A DNA stretch of 64,000 bases from Escherichia coli (lineage in GTDB: Bacteria > Pseudomonadota > Gammaproteobacteria > Enterobacterales > Enterobacteriaceae), in the NCBI RefSeq assembly GCF_013315695.1, contig NZ_CP054356.1; one strand, 5' to 3'. This document shows, one piece after another, positions 26,651-62,877 of the stretch. The notes beneath the pieces are model-generated. The model saw only the letters and a program-made list of their open reading frames with translations. It made no database searches and was not told where the DNA came from. Both the position numbers and the translations under genes were made by a program. The first letter of the stretch is position 1, and each line of letters opens with the position of its first letter.

Positions 26651-26884
26651 TGTTCTTTAAAAATCAGGATTTATTTCAGGCTCCGGCAATACGCATTTAT
26701 GTGTTCTGTCAGTCATCCGGCTGGCAGGTAATGAAAACGCAGGAACAGAAGGAGGAAAACACCGGAAAGCGTCAGATGCAGATATGAAAAAAAGCAGGTC
26801 AGGGACCTGCTTAATCCACGCCGTAAGAATTGTGCGACCAATTTTGACGGCATTGTTAACCAATTTGTCATAAGGAATCCATTT

Positions 26885-27115
26885 ATGACTGTAAGCATTG
26901 TTTCACCTTCCGCAGCGGCTGTAAAGCCCCGCCGTCATCCCCGTTTCAGACGCGAAGACATCCCCGCGCCGGAACTTGACCCCGTGCTGAAAGCCTTCGG
27001 GCGACACATTGCCCGGAGTTTTCGCCGGGGGCGTGGTGTACACATCCCCGCCATGAAAAACACGGCCTTCGGGCAGGTGCTCCGCACACTCGAACTGAAA
27101 CGCGCTTTTAACTGA
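26885..27115 (+). CDS. Small basic hypothetical protein, 76 aa
   Basis: Arg-rich ORF downstream of R2 copy 1. Confidence 0.3.
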   Translation: MTVSIVSPSAAAVKPRRHPRFRREDIPAPELDPVLKAFGRHIARSFRRGRGVHIPAMKNTAFGQVLRTLELKRAFN

Positions 27116-34031: not shown

Positions 34032-34194
34032 TGCGGCAACAATCGCACAGATTACCCGTAAACAGCCTGAATGAGCGGGTTATTTTCAGGAAAAGTGAGT
34101 GTGGTCAGCGTGCAGGTATATGGGCTATGATGTGCCCGGCGCTTGAGGCTTTCTGCCTCATGACGTGAAGGTGGTTTGTTACCGTGTTGTGTGG

Positions 34195-34265
34195 CAGAAA
34201 GAAGATAGCCCCGTAGTAAGTTAATTTTCATTAACCACCACGAGGCATCCCTATGTCTAGTCCAC
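34195..34265 (-). ncRNA. sok: Putative Sok antisense RNA of the hok/sok (flm) locus; coordinates approximate
   Basis: Inferred from the position complementary to the hok/mok mRNA leader; ends not mapped. Confidence 0.3.
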
Positions 34266-34465
34266 ATCAGGATAGCCTCTTACCGCGCTTTGCGCAAGGA
34301 GAAGAAGGCCATGAAACTACCACGAAGTTCCCTTGTCTGGTGTGTGTTGATCGTGTGTCTCACACTGTTGATATTCACTTATCTGACACGAAAATCGCTG
34401 TGCGAGATTCGTTACAGAGACGGACACAGGGAGGTGGCGGCTTTCATGGCTTACGAATCCGGTAA
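34253..34465 (+). CDS. mok: Mok (modulator of killing) overlapping reading frame, 70 aa
   Basis: Translation [52 protein letters not shown]... overlapping hok in another frame. Confidence 0.6.
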
Positions 34466-38212: not shown

Positions 38213-38304
38213 AAGAAATTTGACTTCGTTCAAATATCAGAGTTTTTATGATTTAAAAAGGTGACAGTACGAAAGATAATTAGTATATTAATTACGTGGT
38301 TAAT

Positions 38305-38395
38305 GCCACGTTAAAATTTGAATTTGAAAATCGCCGATGCAGGGAGTTCTCTCCTCCCCGCATCGACTGTCCATAGAATCCTTTGTGAGGAGGTT
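38305..38395 (-). ncRNA. finP: Putative FinP antisense RNA (fertility inhibition); coordinates approximate
   Basis: Expected antisense to the traJ leader between traM and traJ; ends not mapped from sequence. Confidence 0.35.
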
Positions 38396-39088
38396 CCTAT
38401 GTATCCGATGGATCGTATTCAACAAAAACATGCTCGTCAAATAGATCTGCTGGAAAATCTGACGGCAGTTATTCAGGATTATCCAAATCCAGCCTGTATC
38501 AGGGACGAAACTGGAAAATTTATTTTTTGCAATACGCTGTTTCATGAGTCATTTCTTACACAAGATCAAAGTGCTGAAAAATGGCTTCTGTCGCAGAGAG
38601 ATTTTTATGAATTGATCTCTGTCACAGAGATGGAAGCATACAGGAATGAGCATACGCATCTTAATCTTGTAGAGGATGTTTTTATTCAGAACAGATTCTG
38701 GACAATATCTGTCCAGTCATTTCTTAATGGACACAGAAATATTATTCTGTGGCAATTTTATGATGCTGCTCATGTTCGTCATAAAGACAGTTATAATCAA
38801 AAAACGATTGTCAGTGATGATATCAGAAATATAATCAGAAGAATGAGTGATGATTCTTCTGTATCATCATATGTAAATGATGTATTTTACTTATATAGCA
38901 CCGGAATCAGTCATAATGCTATAGCAAGAATATTAAACATATCCATCTCCACATCAAAGAAACACGCATCTCTGATATGCGACTACTTCTCTGTTTCTAA
39001 TAAAGATGAGTTAATCATCTTACTCTACAATAAAAAGTTTATTCATTATTTATACGAGAAGGCTATGTGTATCATAAATATGCGTTAA
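38396..39088 (+). CDS. traJ: Transfer operon activator TraJ, about 230 aa
   Basis: Translation from MYPMDRIQQKHARQIDLLENLTAVIQDYPNPACIRDETGK... matches recalled F TraJ; the longer upstream ORF is probably not translated. Confidence 0.85.
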   Translation, partial: PMYPMDRIQQKHARQIDLLENLTAVIQDYPNPACIRDETGKFIFCNTLFHESFLTQDQSAEKWLLSQRDFYELISVTEMEAYRNEHTHLNLVEDVFIQNRFWTISVQSFLNGHRNIILWQFYDAAHVRHKDSYNQKTIVSDDIRNIIRRMSDDSSVSSYVNDVFYLYSTGISHNAIARILNISISTSKKHASLICDYFSVSNKDELIILLYNKKFIHYLYEKAMCIINMR

Positions 39089-39988: not shown

Positions 39989-40300
39989 ATGTCGGGAGAC
40001 GAGAATAAACTTAAGAAATATCGTTTCCCGGAAACACTGACCAACCAGAGCCGCTGGTTTGGCCTGCCACTGGATGAACTGATCCCCGCAGCAATCTGTG
40101 TTGGCTGGGGTATCACAACATCGAAATATCTGTTCGGTATTGGTGCAGCGGTTCTGGTTTATTTCGGGATTAAAAAACTGAAAAAAGGGCGGGGCAGTTC
40201 CTGGTTACGTGACCTGATTTACTGGTATATGCCAACAGCCCTGCTGCGCGGTATTTTTCATAATGTTCCCGATTCGTGTTTCCGGCAGTGGATTAAATAG
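39989..40300 (+). CDS. traL: Pilus assembly protein TraL
   Basis: Position and size in the tra operon; membrane-spanning segment. Confidence 0.8.
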
Positions 40301-44563: not shown

Positions 44564-44785
44564 GTGAGTGATGAAGCCGATGAAGCATATTCAGTGACAG
44601 AACAACTGACCATGACAGGAATAAACCGGATACGCCAGAAAATAAATGTTCATGGTATTCCTGTTTATCTCTGTGAAGCATGCGGAAATCCTATTCCGGA
44701 AGCCCGGAGGAAAATATTTCCCGGTGTGACGTTGTGCGTTGAATGTCAGGCGTATCAGGAAAGGCAGAGGAAACACTATGCATAA
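44564..44785 (+). CDS. traR: TraR (DksA/TraR-family C4 zinc finger), 73 aa
   Basis: Motifs CEACGNPIPEARRK...CVEC. Confidence 0.9.
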   Translation: MSDEADEAYSVTEQLTMTGINRIRQKINVHGIPVYLCEACGNPIPEARRKIFPGVTLCVECQAYQERQRKHYA

Positions 44786-44793
44786 ATCAGAAA

Positions 44794-45255
44794 ATGAAAA
44801 AAATAGATTTTATTCTGGATGAGCATGAGCAGATATTCAGAAAACAGGGTTCTTTGTGTATGGCACTGGGTAAGGGCTTTTTAGTTATAGCTATTCTTTG
44901 TGGTGTTGCCACATTCTGTGTTTCTGGCCTGTATCTGAAATCCCTGTGCCTGTCCGTTGCCTGCTGTTGTGGGGTATTCAGTCGTATTTTTAATTATTAC
45001 AGCGTACCGGAGGAATCACGCATGGTACTCAGTCGTCAGGAATTACTCCGGCTTATGCGTCTGACTGAAGACGTACCAGATGTGAGACAGGAACTGCTTA
45101 ACCGTTTGTTGTCCGGTAAAAAACTGACTGGTCGGGATGAACAGGATATCCGGCGTCTCTGGCAGGAGAAAGTGGATGCAATGCAGGAGTCTGCCACCCG
45201 TCAGCGTGAACAGGATACTATTCGGAAGTTTACTGAAGGGAATAAATCCGAATGA
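44794..45255 (+). CDS. Hypothetical membrane protein, about 153 aa (insert between traR and traC); start uncertain
   Basis: Cys-rich hydrophobic segment, then a charged helical C-terminus; AT-rich relative to the flanking tra genes. Confidence 0.4.
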   Translation: MKKIDFILDEHEQIFRKQGSLCMALGKGFLVIAILCGVATFCVSGLYLKSLCLSVACCCGVFSRIFNYYSVPEESRMVLSRQELLRLMRLTEDVPDVRQELLNRLLSGKKLTGRDEQDIRRLWQEKVDAMQESATRQREQDTIRKFTEGNKSE

Positions 45256-45334: not shown

Positions 45335-45553
45335 ATGCATACCTTTATTTTTCTTGTGCTGATAAAAAATATTAACGGTGGCGGAAGCTGGAATATTACA
45401 CCCATGCCAAATACGGACGTATGCGTGCAGGTTCTTCGGACAATCGAAGCACATGGCGGCAGGGGCTTTGGAAATACAGGGGAGTGTATTGAAGTTAAAA
45501 CAAATGAACCTTTGAACAGCGTGATGGAAACACTAAATGGTGGTGGGCAATGA
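45335..45553 (+). CDS. Small hypothetical protein, 72 aa (insert between traR and traC)
   Basis: GGAGA RBS about 10 nt upstream; hydrophobic N-terminus. Confidence 0.3.
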   Translation: MHTFIFLVLIKNINGGGSWNITPMPNTDVCVQVLRTIEAHGGRGFGNTGECIEVKTNEPLNSVMETLNGGGQ

Positions 45554-45580: not shown

Positions 45581-45928
45581 ATGAAGTCGATATATTTAAA
45601 ATCTGTTCTGGCTTTTATATTTGTTGGCGTTATGGCTATGATTGTATGTATTCCTTTTTACATCGTTTACCTTGCGCAACAACCTGCAACACCAGAACAA
45701 CTGACAGAGATTTTACAGGAAACTCCCTGTGCAGCAGAAGCATTTCAGGAGACACTTAATTATCAGTCTGAACCTTTAACACTTGGTAAGGCAAATAAAA
45801 TCGCATCAGAATGCAGAAAAAGAAACGAAATGGCAGAGGTGAAACGTGTAAGAGAAAATGAGCGCAATAAGATTCGCGAAAAACAAATTCAGGCATTAAA
45901 TGATGCTCATTCAGTAAAGGAACGTTAA
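45581..45928 (+). CDS. Hypothetical membrane-anchored protein, about 115 aa (insert between traR and traC)
   Basis: AAGGA RBS; N-terminal TM helix then a charged C-terminal tail. Confidence 0.4.
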   Translation: MKSIYLKSVLAFIFVGVMAMIVCIPFYIVYLAQQPATPEQLTEILQETPCAAEAFQETLNYQSEPLTLGKANKIASECRKRNEMAEVKRVRENERNKIREKQIQALNDAHSVKER

Positions 45929-49067: not shown

Positions 49068-49696
49068 GATGCCGGGGGCTGATTGCCCTGCTGATATGGG
49101 GGCAGAGTGTGGCCGCCGCCGATCTTGGCACCTGGGGCGATCTGTGGCCGGTAAAGGAGCCGGACATGCTGACGGTGATCATGCAGCGCCTGACGGCACT
49201 GGAGCAGTCCGGTGAGATGGGCCGGAAAATGGATGCCTTTAAGGAGCGGGTGATCCGCAACAGTCTGCGGCCCCCTGCCGTGCCCGGTATCGGACGCACG
49301 GAGAAATACGGCAGCCGGTTGTTTGACCCGTCCGTCAGACTGGCTGCGGATATCCGGGATAACGAAGGGCGGGTGTTTGCCCGTCAGGGTGAAGTGATGA
49401 ATCCGCTGCAGTATGTGCCTTTTAACCAGACGCTGTATTTCATCAATGGCGATGATCCGGCGCAGGTGGCCTGGATGAAACGCCAGACGCCGCCCACACT
49501 GGAGAGCAAAATTATCCTCGTGCAGGGCAGTATCCCGGAGATGCAGAAGTCTCTGGACAGCCGTGTTTACTTTGACCAGAACGGTGTGCTCTGCCAGCGC
49601 CTCGGCATTGATCAGGTCCCGGCACGGGTGAGCGCCGTTCCCGGCGATCGCTTCCTGAAGGTGGAATTTATTCCGGCAGAGGAGGGCAGAAAATGA
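49064..49696 (+). CDS. traW: Pilus assembly protein TraW, about 210 aa
   Basis: Start at MRCRGLIALLIWGQSVAA (signal peptide), overlapping the trbI stop. Confidence 0.85.
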   Translation: MRCRGLIALLIWGQSVAAADLGTWGDLWPVKEPDMLTVIMQRLTALEQSGEMGRKMDAFKERVIRNSLRPPAVPGIGRTEKYGSRLFDPSVRLAADIRDNEGRVFARQGEVMNPLQYVPFNQTLYFINGDDPAQVAWMKRQTPPTLESKIILVQGSIPEMQKSLDSRVYFDQNGVLCQRLGIDQVPARVSAVPGDRFLKVEFIPAEEGRK

Positions 49697-50685
49697 AGCG
49701 AAGCCTGTGGCTGCTGATGTTATTCCTTCTCGCCGGTCATGTCCCTGCAGCGTCTGCGGATTCTGCCTGTGAGGGGCGTTTTGTAAACCCGATCACGGAT
49801 ATCTGCTGGAGCTGTATTTTCCCGCTCTCGCTGGGCAGTGTCAAAGTCAGTCAGGGTAAGGTCCCCGACACGGCGAACCCGTCGATGCCCATTCAGATTT
49901 GTCCGGCACCGCCGCCGCTGTTCAGGCGTATCGGGCTGGCCATTGGTTACTGGGAGCCGATGGCGCTGACGGACGTCACCCGGTCACCGGGATGCATGGT
50001 TAACCTGGGCTTCAGCCTGCCGGCTTTTGGTAAAACGGCACAGGGAACGGCGAAAAAGGATGAGAAGCAGGTGAACGGGGCGTTCTATCACGTTCACTGG
50101 TACAAATACCCGCTGACGTACTGGCTGAACATCATCACATCGCTGGGCTGTCTGGAAGGTGGTGACCTGGATATCGCTTATCTTTCTGAAATTGACCCCA
50201 CCTGGACGGACAGCAGCCTGACCACCATTCTCAATCCGGAAGCTGTCATCTTTGCCAATCCGATAGCACAGGGGGCCTGTGCAGCAGATGCCATTGCCAG
50301 CGCCTTTAATATGCCTCTCGATGTTCTGTTCTGGTGTGCCGGTTCGCAGGGAAGTATGTACCCGTTCAATGGCTGGGTGAGTAATGAGTCCAGTCCGTTG
50401 CAGTCCTCCCTGCTGGTCAGTGAACGCATGGCGTTCAAACTACACCGTCAGGGCATGATTATGGAAACCATCGGGAAAAATAACGCCGTCTGTAATGAAT
50501 ATCCGTCCCCAATCCTGCCCAAAGAACGCTGGCGTTATCAGATGGTGAATATGTATCCGGACAGCGGGCAGTGCCATCCGTTCGGGCGCAGTGTGATGCG
50601 CTGGGAGACGGGAAAAAATCCGCCCAACACAAAGAAAAACTTCGGCTACCTGATGTGGCGTAAACGTAACTGTGTATTCCTGTAA
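49693..50685 (+). CDS. traU: Transfer protein TraU, 330 aa
   Basis: Signal peptide; size and position. Confidence 0.9.
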   Translation: MKRSLWLLMLFLLAGHVPAASADSACEGRFVNPITDICWSCIFPLSLGSVKVSQGKVPDTANPSMPIQICPAPPPLFRRIGLAIGYWEPMALTDVTRSPGCMVNLGFSLPAFGKTAQGTAKKDEKQVNGAFYHVHWYKYPLTYWLNIITSLGCLEGGDLDIAYLSEIDPTWTDSSLTTILNPEAVIFANPIAQGACAADAIASAFNMPLDVLFWCAGSQGSMYPFNGWVSNESSPLQSSLLVSERMAFKLHRQGMIMETIGKNNAVCNEYPSPILPKERWRYQMVNMYPDSGQCHPFGRSVMRWETGKNPPNTKKNFGYLMWRKRNCVFL

Positions 50686-50708
50686 ATCATTTTAATGAAT
50701 AAGAGGAA

Positions 50709-51020
50709 ATGAAAATGGCAACAATGGACAGTAAATATATTCAGCACCTCAGGAAAATAAGTGCTGTGCTGCTCAGGCTGATAAGCAGAACATTAAAATT
50801 ATTTCCTTTTGGTCTTGTAATGGTGCCCGTTATATTATTTTATTTTGCACCTGACAGTTTTCTCGCTGAAATTATTCATGAATGGAAGAAGGCAGATATA
50901 TCAGAACAAGTGACACTTGTCAGATTATATCTGAAGGTGACATTTACATGTGCGTTTATGGCTGTTTTTCTCAATTATCTTTTTTCTGATGAGTTCATGC
51001 CTGTAAATAGCAGAAAGTGA
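50709..51020 (+). CDS. Hypothetical membrane protein, 103 aa (between traU and trbC)
   Basis: GAGGA RBS; two predicted hydrophobic helices; AT-rich. Confidence 0.4.
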   Translation: MKMATMDSKYIQHLRKISAVLLRLISRTLKLFPFGLVMVPVILFYFAPDSFLAEIIHEWKKADISEQVTLVRLYLKVTFTCAFMAVFLNYLFSDEFMPVNSRK

Positions 51021-51667
51021 GAAATATCATGAACCGGAAAATATTTGCACTTTTTGCTCTGACAGCAGGGATGCATCTTGCTGTTCATGCTTCAGAAAAT
51101 GTGAACACACCTGAAAACCGCCAGTTCCTGAAGCAGCAGGAAAATTTAAGCAGACAACTGCGAGAGAAACCTGACCATCAGCTGAAAGCCTGGGCGGAGA
51201 AACAGGTGCTGGAAAACCCCCTTCAGCGTTCAGATAACCATTTTCTGGATGAGCTGGTTCGTAAACAGCAGGCTTCGCAGGACGGGAAACCCCGGCAGGG
51301 TGCCCTGTATTTTGTGTCGTTTTCCATTCCCGAAGAGGGGCTGAAACGGATGCTGGGCGAAACCCGGCACTACGGTATTCCGGCCACACTGCGGGGCATG
51401 GTGAACAATGACCTGAAGACCACCGCTGAAGCCGTGCTGTCCCTGGTGAAAGACGGCGCGACTGATGGTGTTCAGATCGACCCGACGCTGTTTTCACAGT
51501 ACGGCATTCGCAGTGTACCGGCACTGGTGGTGTTCTGCAGTCAGGGATACGACATCATCCGGGGAAACCTGCGGGTCGGCCTGGCGCTGGAGAAAGTGGC
51601 CGCCACGGGTGACTGCCGGCAGGTGGCTCATGATTTACTGGCAGGGAAAGGAGATTCCGGGAAATGA
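51017..51667 (+). CDS. trbC: Transfer protein TrbC, 216 aa
   Basis: Signal peptide; position and size. Confidence 0.85.
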   Translation: MRNIMNRKIFALFALTAGMHLAVHASENVNTPENRQFLKQQENLSRQLREKPDHQLKAWAEKQVLENPLQRSDNHFLDELVRKQQASQDGKPRQGALYFVSFSIPEEGLKRMLGETRHYGIPATLRGMVNNDLKTTAEAVLSLVKDGATDGVQIDPTLFSQYGIRSVPALVVFCSQGYDIIRGNLRVGLALEKVAATGDCRQVAHDLLAGKGDSGK

Positions 51668-53537: not shown

Positions 53538-53798
53538 ATGATGAAAGTCATATTCACGTCGAACCGTTTTATTGATTTTCTTATCCGGCTTTTGATTACA
53601 GCGATTGTCATTTCCCCGGTAATTATCTGGTCGTGGGATACGGTAAAAGAAACCACTGCAGGTGAGATGCTTGCTGCTTGTTTTGTTATTTTTTACTCCG
53701 GTGTGCTCCTGTTTATTCTGTATTTTTGTTTTTCTGCCCTGACTGGCCTGCAGAAAGATGATGAAAGAAAAAATGATGAAAGGAATGAAGATGAATAA
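53538..53798 (+). CDS. trbE: Transfer protein TrbE, 86 aa
   Basis: Position and size. Confidence 0.7.
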   Translation: MMKVIFTSNRFIDFLIRLLITAIVISPVIIWSWDTVKETTAGEMLAACFVIFYSGVLLFILYFCFSALTGLQKDDERKNDERNEDE

Positions 53799-54547: not shown

Positions 54548-54892
54548 ATGCATACAGGGGATTTGTGTTTTTTTACAGGTGCCAGCCTGTTTATCGTGGG
54601 GGTTGTTGGTTATTTCTTTACAGGACCAAATAATAAAGGAGTTTATCTGCTGAGCTCGTTTGTCTTCTTTGTAGTAAATGTCATAAGTGTATGTATGCTG
54701 CCAGATAATTTCTTGTTTCTTTGTGGTGCGGTTATGAATCAGTGTGCCGTACCGGTTGTTTCAATGGCAGTCAGTACCATACCGGTTATCACGAAGTTTG
54801 ACAGTTTCAGAAGGATGTTTGTTTGTATTATGTTGTCATCAGCATGGTCCGGAGTGATGTGGTTTTTTATAAGGGGGCTTATGACAGGCTAA
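54548..54892 (+). CDS. trbA: Transfer protein TrbA, 114 aa
   Basis: Hydrophobic small protein at the expected position. Confidence 0.6.
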   Translation: MHTGDLCFFTGASLFIVGVVGYFFTGPNNKGVYLLSSFVFFVVNVISVCMLPDNFLFLCGAVMNQCAVPVVSMAVSTIPVITKFDSFRRMFVCIMLSSAWSGVMWFFIRGLMTG

Positions 54893-57837: not shown

Positions 57838-60656
57838 ATGAAGTCTATGTGATTGCCGGTGGTGAGTGGTTAAGCAATAACCTGAACGCCATTGCCGCCT
57901 TTATGGGGACCCGGACGTGGGATTCCATCGAAAAAATTGCGCTCACATTGTCTGTTCTCGCGGTGGCCGTGATGTGGGTACAGCGGCACAACGTGATGGA
58001 TTTGCTGGGCTGGGTGGCCGTGTTTGTGCTTATCAGCCTGCTGGTTAATGTCCGTACATCGGTGCAGATTATTGATAACAGTGACCTGGTCAAAGTTCAC
58101 CGGGTGGATAATGTGCCGGTCGGACTGGCGATGCCACTTTCACTGACGACCCGTATCGGGCATGCAATGGTGGCCAGTTACGAGATGATATTCACCCAGC
58201 CGGACAGTGTCACCTACAGCAAAACGGGGATGCTGTTCGGCGCAGAACTGGTATCAAAAAGCACCGACTTTTTGTCCCGCAATCCGGAAATCGCCAATCT
58301 TTTTCAGGATTATGTGCAGAACTGTGTGATGGGGGATATTTACCTGAACCACAAATACACGCTGGAGGAGCTGATGGCCTCCGCTGATCCCTACACGCTG
58401 ATTTTTTCCCGCCCCAGTCCGCTGCGGGGCGTTTACGACAGCAATAATAATTTCGTGACCTGTAAGGACGCGTCGGTTTCGCTGAAAGACAAGCTGAATC
58501 TGGACACACAGAGTGGCGGAAAAACCTGGCATTATTATGCCCAGCAGTTATTTGGTGGTCGCCCTGATCCGAACCTGTTGTTCAGTACGCTGATTGGCGA
58601 CAGTTACAGTTACTTCTATGGCTCAAGTAAATCAGCCAGCCAGATCATCCGCCAGAATGTCACCATCAATGCGCTGAAGGAGGGGATCACCAGTTATGCC
58701 GCACGTAATGGTGATTCGGCCAGCCTGGTGAATCTGGCCACCACATCATCGATGGAGAAGCAACGTCTGGCACATGTCTCCATCGGTCATGTGGCGATGC
58801 GGACACTGCCCATGACGCAGACCATCCTGACGGGGATCGCCATCGGTATTTTCCCGCTCCTGGTACTGGCGGCTGTCTTCAACAAACTGACGCTGTCCGT
58901 CCTGAAAGGCTATGTGTTTGCCCTGATGTGGTTGCAGTCATGGCCAATGTTGTACGCCATTCTGAACAGTGCCATGACATTTTATGCGAAGCAGAACGGT
59001 GCACCGGTGGTGCTCTCAGAAATTTCACAGATACAGCTGAAATACTCCGATCTGGCTTCCACTGCCGGGTATCTTTCCATGATGATCCCGCCATTATCCT
59101 GGATGATGGTCAGGGGACTCGGGGCCGGATTTTCCAGTGTGTACAGCCATTTCGCTTCCTCTGCTATCAGCCCGACCGCCAGTGCGGCAGGCAGTGTGGT
59201 TGACGGTAATTACTCCTACGGCAACATGCAGACGGAAAACGTGAACGGCTTCAGCTGGAGCACCAACAGCACCACGTCGTTTGGTCAGATGATGTACCAG
59301 ACCGGCAGTGGCGCAACTGCCACACAGACCCGTGACGGTAATATGGTGATGGATGCGAGCGGGGCGATGTCCCGGTTACCGGTTGGTATCAATGCAACGC
59401 GTCAGATTGCAGCGGCACAACAGGAAATGGCCCGGGAGGCGTCGAACAGAGCAGAAAGCGCCCTGCATGGGTTCAGCAGCAGTATTGCCAGTGCCTGGAA
59501 CTCGCTCAGCCAGTTTGGTTCTAACCGGGGGAGCAGTGATTCTGTCACAGGTGGTGCTGACAGCACGATGAGCGCACAGGACTCCATGATGGCCAGCCGT
59601 ATGCGCAGTGCAGTGGAAAGCTATGCGAAGGCGCATAATATCAGTAATGAGCAGGCGACTCAGGAACTGGCATCCAGAAGTACGAGAACTTCTGCCGGGA
59701 TGTATGGAGATGCTCATGCTGAATGGGGGGTTAAACCTAAAATTCTTGGTGTTGGTGGAGGATTAGGCGTTAGAGGTGGTGGTCGGGCTGGTATTGATTG
59801 GGAAGATAATGATGCGCATACGGCAAGTAGTAATACTCAGTCGAGCCATAATGCTCGTCATGATATCGATGCCAGAGCTACACAAGACTTTAAAGAGGCC
59901 AGCGATTACTTTACCAGTCGCAAGGTCAGTGAGTCCGGCAGCCATACTGACAATAATGCTGATTCCCGTGTGGATCAGTTGTCTGCAGCCCTGAATTCAG
60001 CGAAGCAGAGTTACGACCAGTACACGACGAATATGACCCGCAGCCATGAATATGCTGAAATGGCATCCCGTACTGAAAGCATGAGTGGGCAGATGAGTGA
60101 AGACCTGTCGCAACAGTTTGCACAGTATGTAATGAAACACGCGCCACAGGATGCAGAAGCTATTCTGACAAACACCAGTTCACCGGAGATTGCAGAACGT
60201 CGTCGGGCGATGGCCTGGTCTTTTGTGCAGGAACAGGTACAGCCTGGTGTTGATAATGCCTGGCGGGAATCCCGTGGTGATATTGGTAAAGGAATGGAGA
60301 GCGTACCTTCGGGTGGTGGCAGTCAGGATATTATTGCTGACCATCAGGGACATCAGGCCATTATTGAGCAAAGAACGCAGGACAGTAATATCCGTAATGA
60401 TGTAAAACATCAGGTTGATAATATGGTCACAGAATATAAAGGGAATATAGGTGATACTCAGAACAGCGTACGTGGCGAGGAAAATATTGTAAGAGGACAG
60501 TATTCTGAACTGCAGAATCACCATAAAACAGAGGCATTATCTCAGAATAATAAATATAATGAAGAAAAGTCGGCTCAGGAAAGAATGCCCGGGGCTGACA
60601 GTCCACAGGAACTTATGAAAAGGGCAAAGGAATATCAGGATAAGTATAAGCAATAA
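57834..60656 (+). CDS. traG: Mating-pair stabilisation / entry-exclusion specificity protein TraG, 940 aa
   Basis: N-terminal polytopic membrane region and large periplasmic C-terminus; size and position. Confidence 0.9.
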   Translation: MNEVYVIAGGEWLSNNLNAIAAFMGTRTWDSIEKIALTLSVLAVAVMWVQRHNVMDLLGWVAVFVLISLLVNVRTSVQIIDNSDLVKVHRVDNVPVGLAMPLSLTTRIGHAMVASYEMIFTQPDSVTYSKTGMLFGAELVSKSTDFLSRNPEIANLFQDYVQNCVMGDIYLNHKYTLEELMASADPYTLIFSRPSPLRGVYDSNNNFVTCKDASVSLKDKLNLDTQSGGKTWHYYAQQLFGGRPDPNLLFSTLIGDSYSYFYGSSKSASQIIRQNVTINALKEGITSYAARNGDSASLVNLATTSSMEKQRLAHVSIGHVAMRTLPMTQTILTGIAIGIFPLLVLAAVFNKLTLSVLKGYVFALMWLQSWPMLYAILNSAMTFYAKQNGAPVVLSEISQIQLKYSDLASTAGYLSMMIPPLSWMMVRGLGAGFSSVYSHFASSAISPTASAAGSVVDGNYSYGNMQTENVNGFSWSTNSTTSFGQMMYQTGSGATATQTRDGNMVMDASGAMSRLPVGINATRQIAAAQQEMAREASNRAESALHGFSSSIASAWNSLSQFGSNRGSSDSVTGGADSTMSAQDSMMASRMRSAVESYAKAHNISNEQATQELASRSTRTSAGMYGDAHAEWGVKPKILGVGGGLGVRGGGRAGIDWEDNDAHTASSNTQSSHNARHDIDARATQDFKEASDYFTSRKVSESGSHTDNNADSRVDQLSAALNSAKQSYDQYTTNMTRSHEYAEMASRTESMSGQMSEDLSQQFAQYVMKHAPQDAEAILTNTSSPEIAERRRAMAWSFVQEQVQPGVDNAWRESRGDIGKGMESVPSGGGSQDIIADHQGHQAIIEQRTQDSNIRNDVKHQVDNMVTEYKGNIGDTQNSVRGEENIVRGQYSELQNHHKTEALSQNNKYNEEKSAQERMPGADSPQELMKRAKEYQDKYKQ

Positions 60657-60671
60657 TGCTGTTTTTGGGAG

Positions 60672-61157
60672 ATGATAATGAGATGTTTAACCCATATTAC
60701 TCTGGTAACGGTGATACAGTTTATCGCCTGTTATCTGGCTGGTTGGGGGAATGCCGAAACAATTTTTATGCTGTTCTTCATAGTACTATGGCAGGGACTG
60801 TTTATATGGTTGTTCTCTCAAATACGAAAAAAACGGAATGTGTCGGATGAGTTTAAGTTTAGTAAAGGCGTTTGGTATATAACGATGCCAGTATCTTCCT
60901 TACTCTCTCCATTATTAAGCCTGATGGTTTTTATCATTGGTACACTATACGAATTAAGGCGAGTTAGTGGTTGTGTAAGCGTAAGAGAATGGATGCAATC
61001 TCAGGTAAATGAACAAACTAATGAAGATTTGCATCTGGATTTTGATAATATGGATTTTCATCGTACTAATCCTGCAACAGGGTTACCTATGTCAGGTATT
61101 GGTGTGGATATCGGTGGTAATTCATATGGTTATAGTTCAAAACGATATGATGAGTGA
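60672..61157 (+). CDS. traS: Entry exclusion inner-membrane protein TraS (divergent), about 150-161 aa
   Basis: Hydrophobic ORF between traG and traT; assignment by synteny, since TraS is poorly conserved. Confidence 0.6.
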   Translation: MIMRCLTHITLVTVIQFIACYLAGWGNAETIFMLFFIVLWQGLFIWLFSQIRKKRNVSDEFKFSKGVWYITMPVSSLLSPLLSLMVFIIGTLYELRRVSGCVSVREWMQSQVNEQTNEDLHLDFDNMDFHRTNPATGLPMSGIGVDIGGNSYGYSSKRYDE

Positions 61158-61202
61158 ATCTTAATTTGTATATTATGACGTTTTATTCAATATGAAGGAA
61201 CA

Positions 61203-62139: not shown

Positions 62140-62877
62140 ATGACATCAGACAATATCGCTGAATATGTTGGTGAGAATAATCAATTTACTGAGAAGCCTG
62201 TAACTGAATACCCCCCGGTGATACAGGATAATACAGTGACCACTAAAGACTATCTGTACAGCAATAATATTGATACTGACCTTTTAGTGGTTATCGGAGG
62301 GCTTATTGTTATATTGTTTCTCATGATGCTTATCATGTACTTTATTAATTCTCTCAGGCATAAGGAATTAACTGAAATACTGGAAAAAATATCTTTTCCT
62401 GAAAAATCCGGGAGCAATTTGCTTAAACCGGAGGCGGTCAGCTGTAATTTGTTGTCCCTGTGTGTGCTGGCACCGGTACTCTGTACACCCAGAAAGCTGG
62501 CAGAAGTCTCCAGGGAGATCATCGTGGCGAGTGCGCAGGAAATTGCATGGACGCCGGGGAGCAGTCGTATTGATGGTCATCAGGGCGAAAATATTACCTG
62601 GTCTCTGTCATCGCAGTCTCCTGCCGATAAGTATGATCTCATCAATAAAACCTCCCGTGTTTCTCCTGACAGTGGCCGTTTTTATGAACCGGACACAGTT
62701 CTGGATCACCGTGAACGGGTACGCCTTTTTATTCAGATCCAGTTTCCGCACGGGAGTGACTGGTCTGAAGTATTGCGACTGACTGACATTGTTACAGAGA
62801 AGGTCTCTTCCGGCAGGGCTGCAGGCGGGTATCACCACCGGCATACAGGGTACACCTGGTCTGTTTCTGTGAATTAA
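62140..62877 (+). CDS. Hypothetical single-pass membrane protein, about 245 aa, inserted between traT and traD
   Basis: GGAGA RBS 9 nt upstream; one predicted TM helix ([22 protein letters not shown]) and a roughly 180-aa C-terminal domain; lies downstream of the traT stem-loop. Confidence 0.45.

Follow-up and report, generated by a model that had tools for sequence, protein, structure and literature searches.

Resistance and virulence genes in E. coli, Klebsiella and Salmonella are carried mainly by F-like plasmids, whose transfer operons are usually interpreted from the F prototype, which assembles pili and transfers DNA. The small proteins of these operons described so far offer three points of comparison for the open reading frame (ORF) reported here. 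The inner-membrane proteins TrbI and TraQ assist F-pilus retraction and pilin insertion as accessory factors; like them, the ORF product is small and predicted to lie in the inner membrane, with its gene among pilus-assembly genes, but there is no homology, and both proteins are present in F and, besides the ORF, in the DNA studied here. The TraS-type exclusion proteins share with the ORF product a predicted inner-membrane location, a low GC content and divergent alleles that are exchanged between related backbones, but they are encoded at another locus (TraS after traG), and the ORF product is shorter, dissimilar in sequence and has a core that is conserved across plasmid types. Similar in kind are TrbE, TrbA, ArtA, TrbD, TrbF and TrbJ of F, which, like the ORF, are encoded by short, hydrophobic, low-GC islets inside the tra operon; they are dispensable or their role is not known, and their presence varies among F-like plasmids (PMC5102898). 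Unlike these, the ORF is absent from F, is present also in IncX-type regions and shows no homology to any of them.

The window (the whole stretch of 64,000 nucleotides of E. coli DNA that was analysed) contains an R100-like F-type transfer operon on a conjugative plasmid, with the gene order traC, trbI, traW, traU, ORF, trbC, traN, trbE, traF, trbA; its positions 40000–64000 match the E. coli plasmid pSCU-124-2 at 98.9% identity. The ORF lies between traU (49693..50685, plus strand), the conserved backbone on its left flank, and trbC, and its stop codon is separated from the trbC ATG by a gap of 8 nt. The initial annotation had described it as a 103-aa ORF between two genes that are adjacent in F, and both statements are correct: counted from the first ATG, the ORF spans 50709..51020 (plus strand) and encodes 103 aa, and in plasmid F (NC_002483) only 8 bp separate the traU stop from the trbC start, and no ORF lies there. 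Two further low-GC islets in this operon of about 0.55 GC are trbE (53538-53798, GC 0.38) and trbA (54548-54892, GC 0.41), as is the ORF at 0.36. Comparison of the family profile with TraL, TraE, TraP, TrbD, TraR, TrbI, TrbE, TrbA, TraQ, TrbJ and TrbF of the window using hhalign gave probabilities of at most 0.8%, a BLAST comparison of the ORF product with TrbE and TrbA returned nothing, and the NCBIfam type-F models did not match the ORF.

The ribosome-binding site that had been proposed for the ORF is indeed there, as a Shine-Dalgarno GAGGA at 50703..50707 (plus strand, read from the sequence), but its spacing suits a different start codon than the first ATG. Specifically, GAGGA ends 1 nt upstream of the ATG at 50709 and 7 nt upstream of an in-frame ATG at 50715, and on the strength of this spacing the latter is the likely start, giving a CDS of 101 aa at 50715..51020 (plus strand) for a predicted small inner-membrane protein. 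The same start is used by PGAP/RefSeq for WP_000224418.1, while the 103-aa form has been called by some depositors. WP_000224418.1, a “hypothetical protein” to which the ORF product is identical, is annotated in pUTI89, pSCU-124-2 and many other plasmids and occurs on at least 1000 contigs; the allele of the classical plasmid R100 (WP_000224416.1) differs from the window ORF by 4 nt and 3 aa (97% identical). With both records already in RefSeq, the suggestion that this may be an unannotated small tra protein does not hold.

Several observations argue that the ORF is a real coding gene. More specifically, (i) when the 343-nt traU-trbC insert was shuffled 5000 times with dinucleotides preserved, an ORF of 103 aa or longer arose only three times, (ii) homologues are found at the same position in other plasmids (see below), (iii) F-like alleles have a Nei-Gojobori dN/dS of 0.2–0.57 and IncX-type alleles one of 0.10–0.16 (traU, by comparison, has 0.03–0.09 and trbC 0.13–0.3), (iv) a GAGG-like site has been retained in almost every member of the family, 5–9 nt ahead of the start, although nucleotide divergence is saturated, and (v) this allele is intact in all nine copies sampled. 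The dN/dS values imply that selection is purifying but relaxed, and within this allele the ratio of seven nonsynonymous to four synonymous variant sites indicates, on small numbers, only weak constraint. Taken together, these comparisons show that the ORF is a true coding gene, an accessory member of the tra operon with its own Shine-Dalgarno site.

That the ORF is instead a chance or decaying frame in AT-rich filler between traU and trbC, with no function, is highly improbable. The insert is certainly AT-rich (GC 35–36%, with 0.36 for the ORF, versus 0.55 for traU and trbC), the product has no known domain, F does without the gene and nonsynonymous differences are in excess among the closest alleles. 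Against this, the length of the ORF is significant when compared to the shuffles, the frame is intact in every copy examined, the protein is conserved down to 26-34% identity at saturated synonymous sites with dN/dS well below 1, and both motifs and Shine-Dalgarno sites are conserved. An RNA gene was considered as a further alternative and rejected, with no Rfam match in 50686-51028 and no opposite-strand ORF of at least 40 aa inside the ORF. Neither within the ORF nor next to it did a scan find a site resembling a promoter or terminator; the scan's single terminator-like match lies inside trbC (51295–51308) and is within the number expected by chance. The ORF would thus share the tra operon promoter with the pilus-assembly genes.

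A comparison of the traU–trbC junction across F-like plasmids, as the initial annotation had proposed, recovers homologues directly after traU that are 100–111 aa long and 26–60% identical to the window protein, with BLAST E values of 2e-19 to 2e-39 between it and other members. These include proteins of E. albertii pEA16-3_1, pF1140-2, pGSH8M-2-2, plasmid C of strain M11, Salmonella Poona pATCCBAA1673_01 and plasmids of the pSLT type, and representative records are WP_000224418.1, WP_000224416.1 (R100), WP_000224413.1, WP_010999945.1 (pSLT) and WP_015256850.1 (IncX5 pBK31567), of which the pSLT homologue appears in UniProt as Q93GM9, ‘Conjugative transfer protein’. In an alignment of 23 members K28, F42, Y43, P46, W57 and D61 are invariant, and P31, F32, F44, L71, Y72 and L73 nearly so; W57 remains invariant even with the most distant (IncX-type) members included. 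Conservation is higher in the core (residues 28–90) than at either terminus, and the core can be summarized as LK(L/W)FPF ... FYFxP(D/E) ... W ... D ... (V/I)RLY(L/M)K within a protein of about 100 aa with two hydrophobic helices. The window protein carries all of these core residues (K28, P31, F32, F42, Y43, F44, P46, W57, D61, L71, Y72 and L73), is similar to the other members over its full length, and has the same length, helices, core motif and position after traU in the transfer region; it is therefore a member of this unnamed family (WP_000224418/Q93GM9). In other words, a translation signal and conservation are both present, since Shine-Dalgarno sites as well as the protein core are conserved in the family.

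A profile search groups the family into 192 clusters at 90% identity, and 1.84 billion representative proteins, searched exhaustively with an HMM, yielded only 40 matches with no annotated distant relative among them; the family is therefore narrow. Searches of the ORF and the 23 family members against Pfam, NCBIfam and PADLOC gave no significant match, and none of the members matches the PADLOC-DB defence models at E up to 0.1. Likewise, a sequence-profile search of the PDB gave no matches at E up to 10, and the best hit of a Foldseek search of the PDB with the AlphaFold2 model of the protein (pLDDT 69) has a meaningless E value of 7. Similarity to phage shock protein G (PF09583) was rejected as noise: the window protein is unmatched, and five of the 23 members reach a best E of 0.045, far below the gathering threshold.

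No description of the ORF was found in the literature by gene context and accession, in a search that leaves aside Anthony et al. 1999, which reportedly compares R100-1 with F, and Cox & Schildbach 2017, which is said to give the R1 sequence. An unplaced hypothetical protein of 109 aa in the tra operon of a urinary E. coli may or may not belong to the family (PMC9465074). The family is thus unnamed but widely annotated, with no published function found, and the sequence itself is not new; the present contribution lies in placing the likely start, defining the family with its core, setting the boundaries of the cassette so as to include the TrbC signal peptide, and showing that the family occurs in IncX-type transfer regions.

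With respect to the protein itself, the initial annotation had proposed two hydrophobic helices, and Kyte-Doolittle hydropathy (19-residue window) bears this out, with the second segment marginal. The first segment (residues ~28-46, KLFPFGLVMVPVILFYFAP, 50796..50852, plus strand) peaks at 2.02 and contains the conserved P31, F32, F42, Y43, F44 and P46, and the second (residues ~67-90, 50913..50984, plus strand) peaks at 1.74, opens with the (V/I)RLYLK motif, includes R70 and K74 and contains the conserved L71, Y72 and L73. Between them lies a net acidic stretch with a short amphipathic helix, predicted to be periplasmic (residues ~47-66, 50853..50912, plus strand), which holds the invariant W57 and the conserved D61, and ahead of the first segment the N-terminal residues 1-28 carry charges of +6/-1. 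By the positive-inside rule, this difference between a basic N-terminus and an acidic loop predicts an N-in/C-in helical hairpin, in which the N-terminus would be cytoplasmic and the short loop periplasmic. The topology is uncertain because the second segment is marginal, with R70 and K74 in it, and because the IncX-type members may have a third hydrophobic segment. The AlphaFold2 model, built on the 23-sequence alignment, is all-helical (helices 5–44, 47–59 and 62–90; pLDDT 69).

Two transmembrane helices and a charged C-terminus are also found in class II holins, which are encoded beside an endolysin. A class II holin was considered for the ORF product and rejected: the two hydrophobic helices fit, but no lysin is adjacent, the neighbours being traU and trbC or, in IncX-type plasmids, a thermonuclease gene.

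How common the gene is among F-like plasmids can be estimated from PLSDB, where about 4400 plasmids have any match to the traU–trbC region and about 1150 have the contiguous single-ORF form of the window. A tblastn search for any family member finds 2013 plasmids, in 1155 of which the match is at least 95% identical and in 849 less than 60% identical. An evenly spaced sample of the match ranking gives approximate shares of the junction types: one third are empty as in F, one quarter have the form of the window, about 15% contain multi-gene cassettes and the rest are more distant. The family is found directly after traU in roughly half of F-like plasmids. The cassette occurs in 825 (15%) of 5426 complete E. 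coli genomes, with 894 of its 900 places on plasmids. The ORF is, therefore, a common accessory gene and ordinary tra-operon cargo. Since the gene is missing from F and from about one third of the F-like plasmids, it would not be needed for pilus assembly or DNA transfer.

The same slot is also occupied by other genes, namely those for a soluble hypothetical protein of 150 or 172 aa, a 154-aa protein with weak P-loop similarity and further uncharacterised ORFs, and in some plasmids by two family members in tandem (loci L002 and L021). In L002 (plasmid 4 of E. coli MS14385), the tandem members lie at 1113-1421 and 1937-2242 and share 42% identity; the second is the same as the window gene, and a stretch of about 500 nt between the two is unannotated.

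The variable unit at this junction extends beyond the ORF. In the window, a mosaic cargo cassette with a GC content of about 0.35-0.41 (50686..51091, plus strand) starts immediately behind the traU stop codon and extends as far as the cleavage site of the TrbC signal peptide, so that it includes the trbC start and a cargo-type signal peptide, MNRKIFALFALTAGMHLAVHA (51029..51091, plus strand), where F has MKLSMKSLAALLMMLNGAVMA instead. Mature trbC (51092..51667, plus strand), the conserved backbone on the right flank, is ~97-100% identical in nucleotide sequence between F and the window, whereas the two are unrelated over the 21-codon signal peptide and the insert; the right edge of the variable unit is thus the TrbC signal-peptide cleavage site. 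Conversely, the cassette (the ORF and the first 21 trbC codons) is 98.8-100% identical between plasmids in which mature trbC differs by 14-16%. All six cassette-bearing junction forms examined of the E. coli, E. albertii and Salmonella Poona types have a TrbC signal peptide of the MN(R/W)KIFALFALTAG type or the closely related MSRKIF type, and that of pSLT is different again. ORF dS exceeds 1 between plasmids whose traU/trbC dS is only 0.01-0.2, and therefore the alleles are old and have been exchanged by recombination, rather than having diverged in place. These alignments establish that the ORF travels as a recombination cassette which includes the trbC signal-peptide codons, and make the traU–trbC junction a recombination hotspot where small cargo cassettes are swapped along with the TrbC signal peptide.

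The initial annotation had suggested that the ORF may be lineage-specific tra cargo. Its low GC, its absence from F and its presence in only part of the F-like plasmids agree with cargo, but the cassette is not strictly lineage-specific: it occurs on diverged backbones, alternative alleles and other occupants are found in its slot, and it has distant IncX-type relatives. A transposon-like origin was also considered and rejected, as neither terminal inverted repeats nor a target duplication could be seen, but only short imperfect repeats. A 12-nt direct repeat, ATTCCTGTAAAT / ATGCCTGTAAAT, is found at 50676-50687 and 50997-51008, 321 nt apart; it covers the traU stop codon and a site near the ORF end and is probably due to chance, although a deletion could take place through it.

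Cassettes with more than one gene raise the possibility that the family is the membrane module of a two-part cargo system, together with the soluble 150-172-aa protein and sometimes also the 154-aa P-loop protein, and that the solo copy in the window is a remnant. Specifically, the 150/172-aa gene follows the family gene in pEA16-3_1, pF1140-2, pGSH8M-2-2, plasmid C of M11 and pKPTCM2-2, and the two genes overlap by 8 nt in pEA16-3_1 and pF1140-2. In addition, a 259-aa fusion, which joins a family member to the 172-aa soluble protein, recurs in L021 (3001-3780), in P0243 (on 73 contigs), in the P0153 cluster (335 members), in P0235 and in others. With so many alleles paired with or fused to a soluble protein, the solo window copy may be half a system, and the constraint within the solo allele is only weak. 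On the other hand, the solo form is the commonest single arrangement (~1150 plasmids) and is intact in all copies examined, members of the pSLT and IncX types also lack a soluble partner, and pAR13438_1 has the soluble partner with no membrane gene. The membrane module of the fusion, moreover, has lost the conserved Y43, P46 and D61, and therefore the fusion may be a decaying paralogue. This two-part reading of the window copy is, on balance, unlikely. RefSeq often calls only a 177-aa product of the fusion, from an internal Met; the AlphaFold2 model of the full 259-aa form has a pLDDT of 51 and was therefore left out of the fold search.

Some of the most distant family members are found outside F-type transfer regions, on VirB-type, MOBP, IncX-like plasmids, such as P0160 (E 3e-15), IncX5 pBK31567 (WP_015256850.1) and pDD521.3. 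Here the gene lies downstream of the genes for the coupling protein and for Cag12 or TrbM, and immediately upstream of a thermonuclease gene (L015 5001-5809; L019 2429-3231; L010 4001-4809). The two genes share a 4-nt ATGA-type overlap in L019 and L010 and are separated by a 2-nt gap in L015, which suggests that the family member and the thermonuclease gene, whose product bears a signal peptide, are translationally coupled. The link to the F-like members is reciprocal by tblastn (39% identity over 72 aa, E 5e-10), and the core common to both plasmid types is FYFAP[D/E]…W…[S/T][D/E]…[R/K][L/M][Y/F]LK. A close relative of these IncX-type plasmids does not have the family gene, and therefore the gene is accessory there too. 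A derivation of the cargo-type TrbC signal peptide from that of the IncX thermonuclease, by which ORF and signal peptide would have passed between plasmid types as a single unit, was considered and rejected, because there is no similarity between them.

The position of the ORF may also be read as a sign that its product is a specific modulator of the secretion system, a small inner-membrane partner of the TraW/TraU/TrbC/TrbI group, comparable in function to TrbI or the pilin chaperone TraQ, which would tune pilus assembly or retraction, or TrbC export, in those plasmids that have it. The gene is embedded among pilus-assembly genes and always directly after traU, the cassette brings its own trbC translation start and signal peptide with the ORF stop 8 nt from the trbC ATG, and the downstream neighbours of both kinds (TrbC and the IncX-type thermonuclease) are exported proteins with signal peptides. 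This reading is nonetheless improbable, given that F makes pili and transfers DNA with no such ORF, that the family is also present in VirB-type IncX plasmids, which lack TraU, TraW and TrbC and where it lies outside the pilus genes, that the same ORF allele is found beside trbC alleles 14-16% apart, and that the family has no profile similarity to the named small Tra/Trb proteins by hhalign. As the core is shared by two unrelated types of mating apparatus, the partner of the protein is more likely to be a host or general envelope component than an F-type subunit.

Entry exclusion or immunity is another function that could be served by a protein of this kind, in an allele-specific manner as for TraS and acting in plasmid-carrying cells when these are recipients. 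Such a role would be in keeping with a small, low-GC predicted inner-membrane protein whose alleles are deeply diverged on backbones that are nearly identical, and with the tandem divergent paralogues in L002 and L021. But F-like plasmids already have TraS and TraT, and exclusion genes as a rule remain expressed under tra repression, whereas a promoter of its own was not found for the ORF. Its location is not TraS-like either, being between traU and trbC, about 10 kb upstream of the traG/traS position. Furthermore, the termini of the protein are the most variable part and the core is conserved between IncF and IncX members, which argues against allele-specific recognition through the core. An exclusion determinant is, therefore, very doubtful. 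At the traS position of the window (~60670-61175), the coordinates of pSCU-124-2 give no open frame; the entry-exclusion region of the window is probably a different allele or carries an indel.

The best explanation overall, to which we would give somewhat less than an even chance, is that the ORF is an accessory gene of the tra operon, carried in a swappable cassette, whose product is an envelope-level accessory factor made together with the pilus. Confidence in the mechanism, i.e. in an envelope-level accessory factor, is low. Under this explanation the ORF product would be made only when the pilus is made; it would not be a builder of the secretion machine, and might help the donor by keeping out pilus-dependent phage or barring foreign entry or, alternatively, by buffering the membrane or envelope stress that comes from pilus assembly. 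Predicted expression restricted to an active tra operon is in keeping with a function connected to what piliation costs or to the risks it brings. A bolder form of the same idea, and a distinctly unlikely one, is that the family constitutes an unrecognised class of small inner-membrane factors associated with conjugation, found with both F-type and VirB-type (IncX) systems and produced only along with the mating apparatus, whose conserved periplasm-facing loop would act on a host envelope component and so offset the cost of being ‘male’, with the deeply diverged, recombining alleles as the product of an arms race. Examples of such action would be a block to the entry of pilus phages via the Tol pathway or a damped Cpx/Psp stress response.

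For the reading of natural plasmids, the consequence is that the F prototype lacks a component found in R100 and in about half of natural F-like plasmids. If the ORF product alters donor fitness, phage sensitivity or mating, it would help to explain natural plasmids as compared to laboratory F; if it has no measurable effect, the gene is one more dispensable passenger of the tra operon. The practical value is modest either way, and consists of a named family and a clean deletion target.

Cargo is also seen at other junctions of these operons. In other F-like plasmids the trbC-traN junction is a second cargo hotspot, with a 123-aa hypothetical protein (no Pfam match) and/or an HNH endonuclease (L003 3388-3759; L007 2173-2592; L008 2764-3400; L018 4049-4867; L023 4043-4862); in the window this junction is empty, and the two genes overlap by 4 nt (51664-51667). 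The gap between traR and traC in the window is filled by three uncharacterised ORFs at 44743-45255 (170 aa), 45335-45553 (72 aa) and 45581-45928 (115 aa). The closest plasmid, pSCU-124-2, has the first of these recorded as a frameshifted hypothetical protein; the 72- and 115-aa products have no Pfam match. A 245-aa hypothetical protein, also with no Pfam match, is encoded between traT and traD (62140-62877) and has an R100 counterpart at the same position. Finally, Rfam matches above the gathering threshold are found in the window at 38294-38405, 34137-34313, 26789-26890 and 58553-58638, and comprise the traJ 5′ UTR and FinP, the sok antitoxin RNA, AS-pc01 and an antisense RNA to traG.
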